In this document: positions 6,651-6,690 of the stretch, one piece after another
Layout of the letters: the number at the start of each line of letters is the position of its first letter
How positions within the stretch are numbered: position 1 is the first letter of the stretch
IMG/VR virus record: IMGVR_UViG_2579779002_000003
Length of the DNA stretch: 10,456 bases
Reading direction: 5' to 3' (one strand)
Source: a virus
Lineage: Duplodnaviria; Heunggongvirae; Uroviricota; Caudoviricetes
The notes under the pieces: model-generated
Database searches by the model: none
What the model was told of the DNA's origin: nothing
The model's input: only the letters and a program-made list of their open reading frames with translations
Translations under genes and position numbers: made by a program

Positions 6651-6679
6651 AAAACCGCGTTTACACGCGGTTTTTATTT
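6651..6679 (+). terminator. Rho-independent terminator downstream of the cargo gene
   Basis: Stem ACCGCG (6654-6659), loop TTTACA, stem CGCGGT (6666-6671), followed by a TTTTTATTT run; an A-run upstream could allow bidirectional function. Confidence 0.7.
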
Positions 6680-6690
6680 GAGGTGACGCC

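Follow-up and report, generated by a model that had tools for sequence, protein, structure and literature searches.

Morons have a deviant GC content and come with a promoter and a terminator of their own; the first one to be described lies in the tail operon of phage HK97, beside the gene encoding the tail tape-measure protein (TMP) (PMC3594210). This moron, gene 15 of HK97 (Juhala et al. 2000, via Cumby et al. 2012, PMC3594210) shares several properties with the locus reported here, the junction between the TMP gene and the Mu N-like gene in a stretch of 10,456 nucleotides of phage DNA, hereafter called the window. In both cases, a single small gene with a product that is, or is predicted to be, targeted to the envelope is found next to TMP in the late tail operon of a lambdoid phage, an operon that is apparently under Q antitermination in the phage of the window as well. 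Both genes also have a deviant GC content and their own terminator, and are absent from close relatives. However, the HK97 gene lies upstream of TMP in a siphovirus tail operon, whereas that of the window lies downstream of TMP in a Mu-like contractile-tail module. Moreover, the HK97 product is an inner-membrane superinfection-exclusion protein, with function and expression from the prophage both shown, whereas the cargo of the window is a predicted secreted orphan protein.

A comparable situation is the 'ant moron' slot upstream of the tailspike gene of P22-like phages (PMC2629481), where one intergenic position of the late operon holds, with a high flux, unrelated gene sets in otherwise syntenic phages. 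This slot belongs to another phage group and another position, and its cargos comprise several genes, whereas the TMP/N cassettes described below are single genes encoding small exported or membrane proteins. At the TMP/N junction itself, a hairpin without any gene is found upstream of N in SfV, SfI, and SfII, and the SfII record (NC_021857.1) annotates it as a putative rho-independent terminator (11928-11966). As in the window, a hairpin and a T-run immediately precede the N ribosome-binding site, but the hairpin sequence (TCCCAC-TCCG-GTGGGA) is unrelated, no cargo accompanies it, and the N protein has a shorter N-terminus. The SfIV genome includes a Q gene as well as a moron that lies between signals for initiation and termination (PMC3851460).

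Lambdoid late operons become active through Q antitermination (PMC2629481). Two reports describe Q-loaded polymerase as termination-deficient, the RNA-exit channel being narrowed and extended so that terminator hairpins cannot form (bioRxiv 10.1101/651190; PMC9388147). In the lambda-type pR'-qut-tR' control, represented here by the Q82 family (PF03589), the Q gene is followed by a terminator located ahead of lysis, head, and tail genes carried by one strand, and internal terminators are expected to be bypassed by Q-loaded polymerase; the phage of the window is likened to this system by the Q gene and the tR'-like terminator of near-identical prophages. Read-through of terminators located downstream is an established effect of Q-lambda, Q21, and Q82. 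A moron with its own terminator in a Q-antiterminated late operon is already known, as is an annotated terminator at this junction in the relative SfII. The cassette of the window is an undescribed moron, and the recurrent TMP/N slot of SfV-like prophages is a mildly new element.

Gene Neighbourhood and the Inserted Cassette

The window corresponds to the tail module of an E. coli prophage of the SfV/SfIV type, in which a lambdoid head is combined with a Mu-like contractile tail (Table 1). Neighbouring genes overlap or abut at 3419, 3772, 8061, 9140, and 9685, consistent with the tightly coupled operon described in an earlier sequence-only reading of this DNA. Between TMP and N, a cassette of 609 nt (6082-6690) has a GC content of 34%, and values of 0.33-0.39 over positions 6000-6800 compare with 0.45-0.62 in the flanks. 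The two genes are separated by only 24 nt in SfIV, versus 609 nt in the window, and SfIV aligned with the window in two megablast pieces that covered 60% of the query and comprised the flanks only. The first ~25 codons of the N-like gene form part of the variable segment, the 5' end of the gene being unlike those of SfIV and SfV up to about position 6762. The same insert is present in vB_EcoM-720R4, which is 98.9% identical to the window over 5600-7300.

Table 1. Position of the genes and terminator parts in the window (position 1 is the first nucleotide of the window).
Feature	Position	Strand	Evidence or remark
Sheath gene	1923-3419	+	Name from the homologous gene in 720R4 and the E. coli C3 prophage
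Tube gene	3419-3775	+	Name from the homologous gene in 720R4 and the E. coli C3 prophage
Tail tape-measure (TMP) gene, 633 aa	4180-6081	+	PF10145, E = 2.2e-42; phrog_28; homologue annotated in SfIV and 720R4
Segment differing from cassette-free SfIV	~6066-6762	+	Last TMP codons, cassette, and 5' end of N; boundaries set by eye
Cassette 5' untranslated region	6082-6145	+	Degraded palindrome ~6083-6109; cargo ribosome-binding site AGGAGA 6137-6142
Cargo gene, 162 aa	6146-6634	+	phrog_5586
Terminator hairpin, whole	6650-6675	+	Perfect 11-bp inverted repeat; GC core CCGCGT/ACGCGG at 6655-6670
5' arm AAAAACCGCGT	6650-6660	+	Sequence
Hairpin loop TTAC, 4 nt	6661-6664	+	Sequence
3' arm ACGCGGTTTTT	6665-6675	+	Sequence; followed by ATTT to 6679
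T-run TTTTTATTT, T at 8 of 9 positions	6671-6679	+	Sequence; expected release site of unmodified RNA polymerase
Shine-Dalgarno and start of the N-like gene	6680-6693	+	GAGGTG 6680-6685, ATG 6691; directly abutted by the T-run
Mu N-like 'DNA circulation'/baseplate hub gene, 457 aa	6691-8064	+	PF07157, E = 1.8e-33; phrog_184
P-like and further baseplate genes	8061 onward	+	Overlapping stops and starts

Among 5426 complete E. coli genomes, 101 contain the cassette, with identities of 95-100%, and 1097 contain the N module. It is thus carried by about 2% of the complete E. coli genomes and by about 9% of those having the tail module. The palindrome at its left end, degraded in the window, is perfect in variant loci (AACCCTACTT-TAATC-AAGTAGGGTT). 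In its translation and alignment, the cargo protein shows a signal peptide (MKKMFILLLAVGLPLNSFA/KP) as well as two Cys residues that are conserved, and it is predicted to be secreted. Its sole family match was phrog_5586, of 'unknown function' (E = 2.7e-85), and searches against Pfam and PADLOC returned no match. Ten homologues were found, all from Escherichia or Shigella, and the AlphaFold2 model of the protein had a mean pLDDT of 47.7, too low for the model to be of use.

The first reading had proposed that the terminator belongs to the inserted DNA. This is borne out by the absence of the insert from SfIV, by its low GC content, and by the distribution of the hairpin itself, as exact matches to its 24-mer were found in 19 IMG/VR contigs, all of which carry the cargo gene, and nowhere else in that collection. 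The hairpin is unchanged in 37 of the 38 copies of this cassette type, the single disruptive change being a C-to-A substitution in the first base of the stem (locus L016). A paralogue of the cargo (P0007, 49% identical) occupies the same junction in Shigella/E. coli, and a terminator (CCGCCA-GAAAT-TGGCGG followed by T7, d = 27.4 on the terminator score defined below) is located just before the N Shine-Dalgarno. When this stem was compared with that of the window (CCGCGT/ACGCGG), two pairs differed, with both sides changed, in a register set manually because MAFFT was unable to align the hairpins. The Shigella/E. coli prophage that carries the paralogue is defective and has an N gene interrupted by IS1.

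The Hairpin and T-Run Have the Form of an Intrinsic Terminator

In a repeat search, the two 11-nt arms of the hairpin were 100% complementary. The GC core (CCGCGU/ACGCGG) consists of five G-C pairs and one U-A pair, and an A5/U5 extension brings the stem to 11 bp. RNA folding gave -8.8 kcal/mol for the GC core alone, -14.2 kcal/mol for the extended hairpin alone (z = -5.4), and -20.3 kcal/mol for a 56-nt context (z = -4.5), a value matched by none of 200 shuffles. The hairpin was also present in the fold of a 141-nt nascent-RNA context. It starts 15-20 nt past the cargo stop codon, and the T-run, with a T-tract score of 4.58 for TTTTTATTT, ends 11 nt before the ATG of the N-like gene. The element has both a stem-loop and a U-tract of about 7-9 nt, the canonical anatomy of an intrinsic terminator, and transcripts would be expected to end at about 6676-6679.

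Potential terminators were also ranked with a discriminant d of the d'Aubenton-Carafa type, combining hairpin energy and T-tract and used with modern energy parameters. Absolute values of d are therefore approximate, and weight was placed on ranks and shuffle controls. For the 6650-6679 site, d was +15.8 with the + strand as template of the score and +28.5 with the - strand. It was the sole clearly positive terminator of the 10.4-kb window, the runner-up sites having d values of 0.2 and 1.6. When the whole window was dinucleotide-shuffled 60 times and scored on both strands, one shuffle reached a d of at least 15.8; among 300 shuffles of the AT-rich insert, none did. A chance origin of the hairpin and T-run is excluded by these shuffles together with the recurrence of such elements across cassettes described below. 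The A5 tract on the 5' side of the hairpin mirrors the T tract, and because of this, the hairpin looks like a terminator on both strands.

A simple consensus terminator scan of the window did not list the hairpin at 6650-6679, and we think that the A/T extension of the stem consumes the T tail that such a scan requires. Comparison of the hairpin with Rfam, on both strands, gave sub-threshold matches only (Leu_leader, 27.9 bits for a gathering threshold of 50; RNAI, 23.2 bits for a gathering threshold of 47), which we read as a generic similarity to terminators. In the minimum-energy fold, UUACCU (6640-6645) pairs with the N Shine-Dalgarno; this was taken as chance, the complement being absent, by eye, from the other cassettes.

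The sequence-only reading had described a strong intrinsic terminator at 6651-6690. Sequence, folding, and the shuffle-tested score all indicate that the hairpin and T-run are real and have the canonical shape of such an element, and the hairpin instability in folding calculations that would have spoken against this description was not observed. Two details had to be corrected. The T-run had been placed about 12 nt upstream of the N Shine-Dalgarno, whereas it abuts the Shine-Dalgarno directly and is separated by 11 nt from the ATG. The word strong goes beyond the data, as the GC core measures 6 bp and the d value is close to 17.7 and 18.6, those of the phage tR'-like terminator and the mlaA terminator of the host, respectively. 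With a GC stem of only 6 bp (-8.8 kcal/mol), a modest efficiency is conceivable and plain leakage may add to read-through.

The TMP/N Junction Is a Recurrent Cassette Slot

Eighty IMG/VR loci were retrieved via the N protein, and the gap between TMP and N was classified in 76 of them. The SfIV type, with a 24-nt gap and no terminator, was the most frequent (30 loci). Seventeen loci were of the SfV type, with no gene and a solo hairpin (TCCCAC-TCCG-GTGGGA followed by T6, d = 26-29); an in-frame ATG lies inside the T-run of 16 of these. The 609-nt cassette of the window, with its hairpin, was found in 14 loci. Five loci contained a cassette of 683 nt, encoding a membrane-anchored protein of 176 aa and ending with GCCACCT-TCTAAT-AGGTGGC followed by TTTTTAATTTT (d = 19.5), and six contained a cassette of 684 nt, encoding a signal-peptide protein of ~164 aa, with an interrupted hairpin of 48 nt (-18.5 kcal/mol) followed by GTTTTTTGT. 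Finally, four loci contained a 541-nt cassette with a cargo in reverse orientation, a tRNA_anti-like OB-fold protein (PF12869) with an N-terminal membrane anchor; the hairpin of this cassette (d = 3.6, - strand) is at the TMP side and thus 3' of the cargo that it accompanies. The TMP/N junction is therefore a recurrent slot for at least four unrelated single-gene cargo cassettes.

Each of the forward cassettes ends in its own hairpin and T-run abutting the N ribosome-binding site, and similarity to cassette-free relatives returns a few bases from the N Shine-Dalgarno. This survey by cassette type indicates that the terminator follows the cargo and not the operon. The terminator tracks the cargo in presence, position, and orientation, which is the architecture of a moron. 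The junction can also hold a terminator without cargo, as the solo hairpins of SfV, SfI, and SfII demonstrate.

These solo hairpins bear on another reading, according to which the hairpin would be an attenuator or insulator internal to the tail operon, upstream of which the cargo genes simply landed. Such an element could block stray, non-antiterminated transcription of the baseplate genes in lysogens, or lower the amount of baseplate mRNA relative to that of sheath, tube, and TMP. In line with this, a hairpin and T-run lie just upstream of the N ribosome-binding site in 42 of the 76 loci, 17 of them without cargo, and the solo element is the one annotated as a terminator in SfII. However, the 30 loci of the SfIV type have no junction terminator, and the hairpin sequence differs from one cassette to another, so that no shared element has been retained. 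The hairpin of the window is found only together with its cargo. In the reverse cassette, the hairpin accompanies its cargo to the TMP side, and the best + strand terminator-like site of the junction had a d of -25.2, no site exceeding -25. Furthermore, Q-modified polymerase is expected to ignore the hairpin, which could then not set the stoichiometry of the lytic transcripts. Taken together, we consider a role as an operon-owned attenuator or insulator unlikely, and favour a terminator that belongs to the moron.

Alternatively, the hairpin might mainly stabilise an RNA 3' end or act as a processing barrier, so that once the long late transcript has been cleaved, 3' exonucleases would be kept away from the mRNA of the cargo or of the tail genes upstream. 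Its stability and its location 15-20 nt past the cargo stop codon would suit this function, and any intrinsic-terminator hairpin also stabilises the 3' end that it creates. Nevertheless, the long T-run and the mirrored A-tract are specific to termination, the T-run is kept in all forward cassettes, and no processing signal was identified at the hairpin. Stabilisation as the main function thus appears very improbable.

The TMP/N spacer could be a dedicated exchange slot in which the hairpin, and perhaps the left palindrome, guides the gain, loss, or swap of cassettes. The data are compatible with such a process because the cassette ends adjoin the N Shine-Dalgarno, all of them lying within 1-3 nt of it, and because one deletion breakpoint was located in the loop of the left-end palindrome. 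We nonetheless hold hairpin-guided exchange to be decidedly unlikely. If it did occur, the solo hairpins of SfV, SfI, and SfII would be 'empty-slot' scars or landing pads, and morons would be acquired here under the guidance of hairpins, instead of entering by illegitimate recombination at random and then spreading through homologous exchange of the flanking DNA.

Late Transcription and Probable Passage Through the Terminator

In the 720R4 record, the gene for a Q protein of 250 aa (PF03589, E = 9.6e-54) precedes the lysis, head, and tail genes, all carried by one strand. The same Q and late-gene layout was observed in a prophage of E. coli C3 (NZ_CP010119), which is 99.8% identical over the cassette and is integrated beside intS and a gene for tRNA-Arg. 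As Q is present in these prophages, with 98.9-99.8% identity in the region of the cassette, the phage of the window probably has a Q gene as well, located outside the window. In the C3 prophage (locus L105), a predicted terminator (CCTCGCTTCGGCGGGG followed by TTTTTGCTTTT, 4625-4640, d = 17.7) is found ~110 nt past the stop codon of Q and directly adjoins the Shine-Dalgarno of the following gene; this is the classical position of tR', and the element is tR'-like. A second internal terminator (7625-7642 of the same locus, d = 11.9) abuts the Shine-Dalgarno of an HNH gene, and the cassette terminator is the third. All genes from 4665 to 27325 of this locus are on the + strand, in a single late operon of ~23 kb. 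A Q-family gene upstream, a tR'-like terminator, and co-directional late genes, as expected of a Q-antiterminated operon, are hence all present in the near-identical prophages. For the late promoter, inspection by eye gave a weak candidate only (TTGCAT-17-TAGGAT).

The 720R4-type records appear to be in-silico prophages, judging from one preprint that mentions 689R6 and concerns phages located in clinical isolates. vB_EcoM-720R4 was not found in any relevant paper of the literature. As these records are seemingly in-silico, they do not prove that cassette-bearing phages are viable.

To account for transcription of N and the baseplate genes, the first reading had offered antitermination or leakage at the terminator, or a promoter inside the cargo gene. 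Antitermination is the natural route, given the Q82-type gene, the tR'-like terminator, and the further internal terminator of the near-identical prophages. Because these prophages have a Q82-type antiterminator and a tR'-like terminator, processive antitermination is the likely bypass, and Q-mediated read-through of the cassette terminator is, on the basis of gene content, the most likely explanation.

In contrast, a promoter located in the cargo gene could not serve N, as it would be upstream of the same terminator, where its unmodified transcripts would stop. Service of N and the baseplate genes by a promoter in the cargo or the cassette, or by leakage through a weak terminator without antitermination, can draw on the 6-bp GC stem, which makes some read-through by unmodified polymerase plausible, and on the AT-rich cargo DNA, which has many weak promoter-like hexamers. 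Yet transcripts from a promoter anywhere in 6082-6650 would meet the terminator, and a promoter downstream of it cannot fit in the 11 nt between the T-run and the ATG; on this last point, the earlier statement that there is no room for a promoter between terminator and N holds. A consensus scan of the window listed no promoter-like site on the + strand. Moreover, cassette-free relatives with 24-nt gaps indicate that N is normally co-transcribed with TMP, and the Q gene and tR'-like terminator of the near-identical prophages also argue against this explanation, which we regard as extremely improbable.

We consider it very probable that the hairpin and T-run are the factor-independent terminator of a horizontally acquired moron inserted in the TMP/N slot, and that Q-loaded polymerase reads through it. 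In this model, the nascent-RNA hairpin would form behind an unmodified sigma-70 polymerase, which would be released in the U-run at about 6676-6679, whether it had started at a cassette promoter or arrived as stray read-through from upstream. The lysogen would therefore not express the downstream baseplate genes. In the lytic phase, one promoter downstream of gene Q would serve the entire late operon, and polymerase carrying the Q82-type antiterminator would pass tR', the cassette terminator, and at least one other internal terminator. N would then be translated from its own ribosome-binding site, right after the T-run.

These results do not challenge the current understanding, as terminators inside a late operon under Q antitermination are to be expected and do the phage no harm. 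This one is useful mostly in annotation, where it sets the 3' limit of the moron cassette. Products of the TMP/N slot, which are small exported or membrane proteins, are candidates for lysogenic conversion or superinfection exclusion, and the question of interest is the role of the secreted cargo and its expression in the lysogen, rather than the mechanism of the terminator.

Promoters and Expression of the Cargo

The extra DNA between adjacent genes, its deviant GC content, and its own 3' terminator identify the cassette as a moron in the sense of Juhala and Hendrix. As to the 'independent transcription unit' half of the definition, no better-than-chance sigma-70 promoter was found upstream of the cargo. 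With a simple position-weight score, the best sigma-70 site in 6021-6146 scored 6.75, a value equalled by 49% of shuffles. A promoter for the cargo and its insulated expression in the lysogen, as suggested in the sequence-only reading, would be a reasonable analogy with known morons. By eye only, an extended -10 candidate (TGgTAAAGT) was noticed at 6114-6122. By contrast, the 683-nt cassette contains a good predicted promoter, TTGTAA-16-TGaTAGAAT, with a score of 12.0 that was reached by 2.3% of shuffles.

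Gene Content of the Tape-Measure/N Junction in Related Prophages

Three further cassettes, unrelated to the one in the window, were found in the gap between the tape-measure gene and N, the Mu N-like baseplate hub gene (loci L063, L066 and L064), and none of their three cargo proteins was matched by PADLOC. At other loci, the same junction is occupied by a solo hairpin, and no cargo gene is present there in SfV, SfII, L059, or the 15 others. In the SfII record, this hairpin carries the annotation "putative rho-independent terminator". Because its T-run contains an in-frame ATG, naive ORF calling stretches N upstream across the hairpin.

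Features of the late operon and of the cassette region. Positions refer to the window unless a locus is named.
Feature	Position	Strand or orientation	Location	Sequence or description
Cassette cargo		reverse	tape-measure/N gap	148-aa membrane-anchored OB-fold protein, PF12869 (tRNA_anti-like)
Cassette cargo			tape-measure/N gap	176-aa protein with N-terminal transmembrane segment; good predicted sigma-70 promoter TTGTAA-16-TGaTAGAAT
Cassette cargo			tape-measure/N gap	~164-aa signal-peptide protein
Solo hairpin	L108 1129-1167 (SfII); also L080 (SfV), L059 and 15 other loci		between tape-measure gene and N	TCCCAC-TCCG-GTGGGA + T6
Second predicted terminator	L105 7620-7647	bidirectional	inside late operon	AAAAACACCAGC-TTTG-GCTGGTGTTTTT
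Palindrome	6083-6109		cassette left end, directly 3' of tape-measure stop codon	palindromic sequence
Promoter-like site	7091-7063	minus	inside N, facing the cassette	TCGACA-17-GACAAT

The second predicted terminator, detected in the E. coli C3 prophage (L105), lies between a gene encoding a 187-aa hypothetical protein (6993-7556) and the HNH endonuclease and terminase genes, and it too adjoins the Shine-Dalgarno sequence of the gene downstream. Its discriminant d, of the d'Aubenton-Carafa type, combines hairpin energy and T-tract and is approximate in its absolute values; it was 11.9 on the plus strand and 39.6 on the minus strand. This terminator may mark another moron.

Left End of the Cassette and Rearranged Prophages

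The palindrome at the left end of the cassette is perfect in the variant copies (L017, L020, and related loci), where it reads AACCCTACTT-TAATC-AAGTAGGGTT, and is degraded in the window (ATAACTACTT-TAATC-AAGTAGGGTTAT). It lacks a T-run and may serve as an operator, as an RNA hairpin, or as a landmark for recombination. In a deletion prophage (L019, position ~2947, identical to L034; IMGVR_UViG_2778261416_000006), the Rz lysis gene is joined directly to TAATCAAGTAGGG..., which corresponds to the loop of this palindrome. The deletion has removed the terminase, the head genes, and the tail genes as far as the tape-measure gene, leaving the cargo gene, its terminator, and N in place.

The cargo paralogue with 49% identity and its terminator are still carried by a dead Shigella/E. 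coli prophage in which N is broken after ~10 codons (L106 3539-3588; L129 and L130 from ~3050 onward). The interrupting sequence, GGTAATGACTCCAACTTACTGATAGTG, is presumably an IS1 end.

Start Region of N

The first ~25 codons of N (6691-6765) fall in a variable segment: the protein begins with MDFSHISSYLSSDSRSGWREKL in the window, whereas SfIV has MDLSSFPTRPS... and SfV-type phages have MTWKDRL. The N-terminal extension of N is thus dispensable and mosaic, and it is swapped along with the junction.

In the minimum-energy fold, UUACCU (6640-6645), upstream of the terminator hairpin, pairs with AGGUGA (6681-6686), the Shine-Dalgarno sequence of N, and the terminator is thus bracketed by a helix that would mask the ribosome-binding site. 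Since inspection by eye of the other cassettes revealed no equivalent complement to this Shine-Dalgarno sequence, the predicted helix is probably due to chance.

Any antisense transcript initiated at the minus-strand promoter-like site within N would run into the bidirectional terminator from its minus-strand side. However, only four promoter-like sites were found in the window versus 7.2 expected, and this one is thus probably a chance match. Finally, an imperfect inverted repeat of 23 nt (74% complementary) flanks the cassette, with one arm (6134-6156) covering the ribosome-binding site and start codon of the cargo gene and the other (6695-6717) the opening codons of N; in purine-rich sequence, such a match may have arisen by chance.
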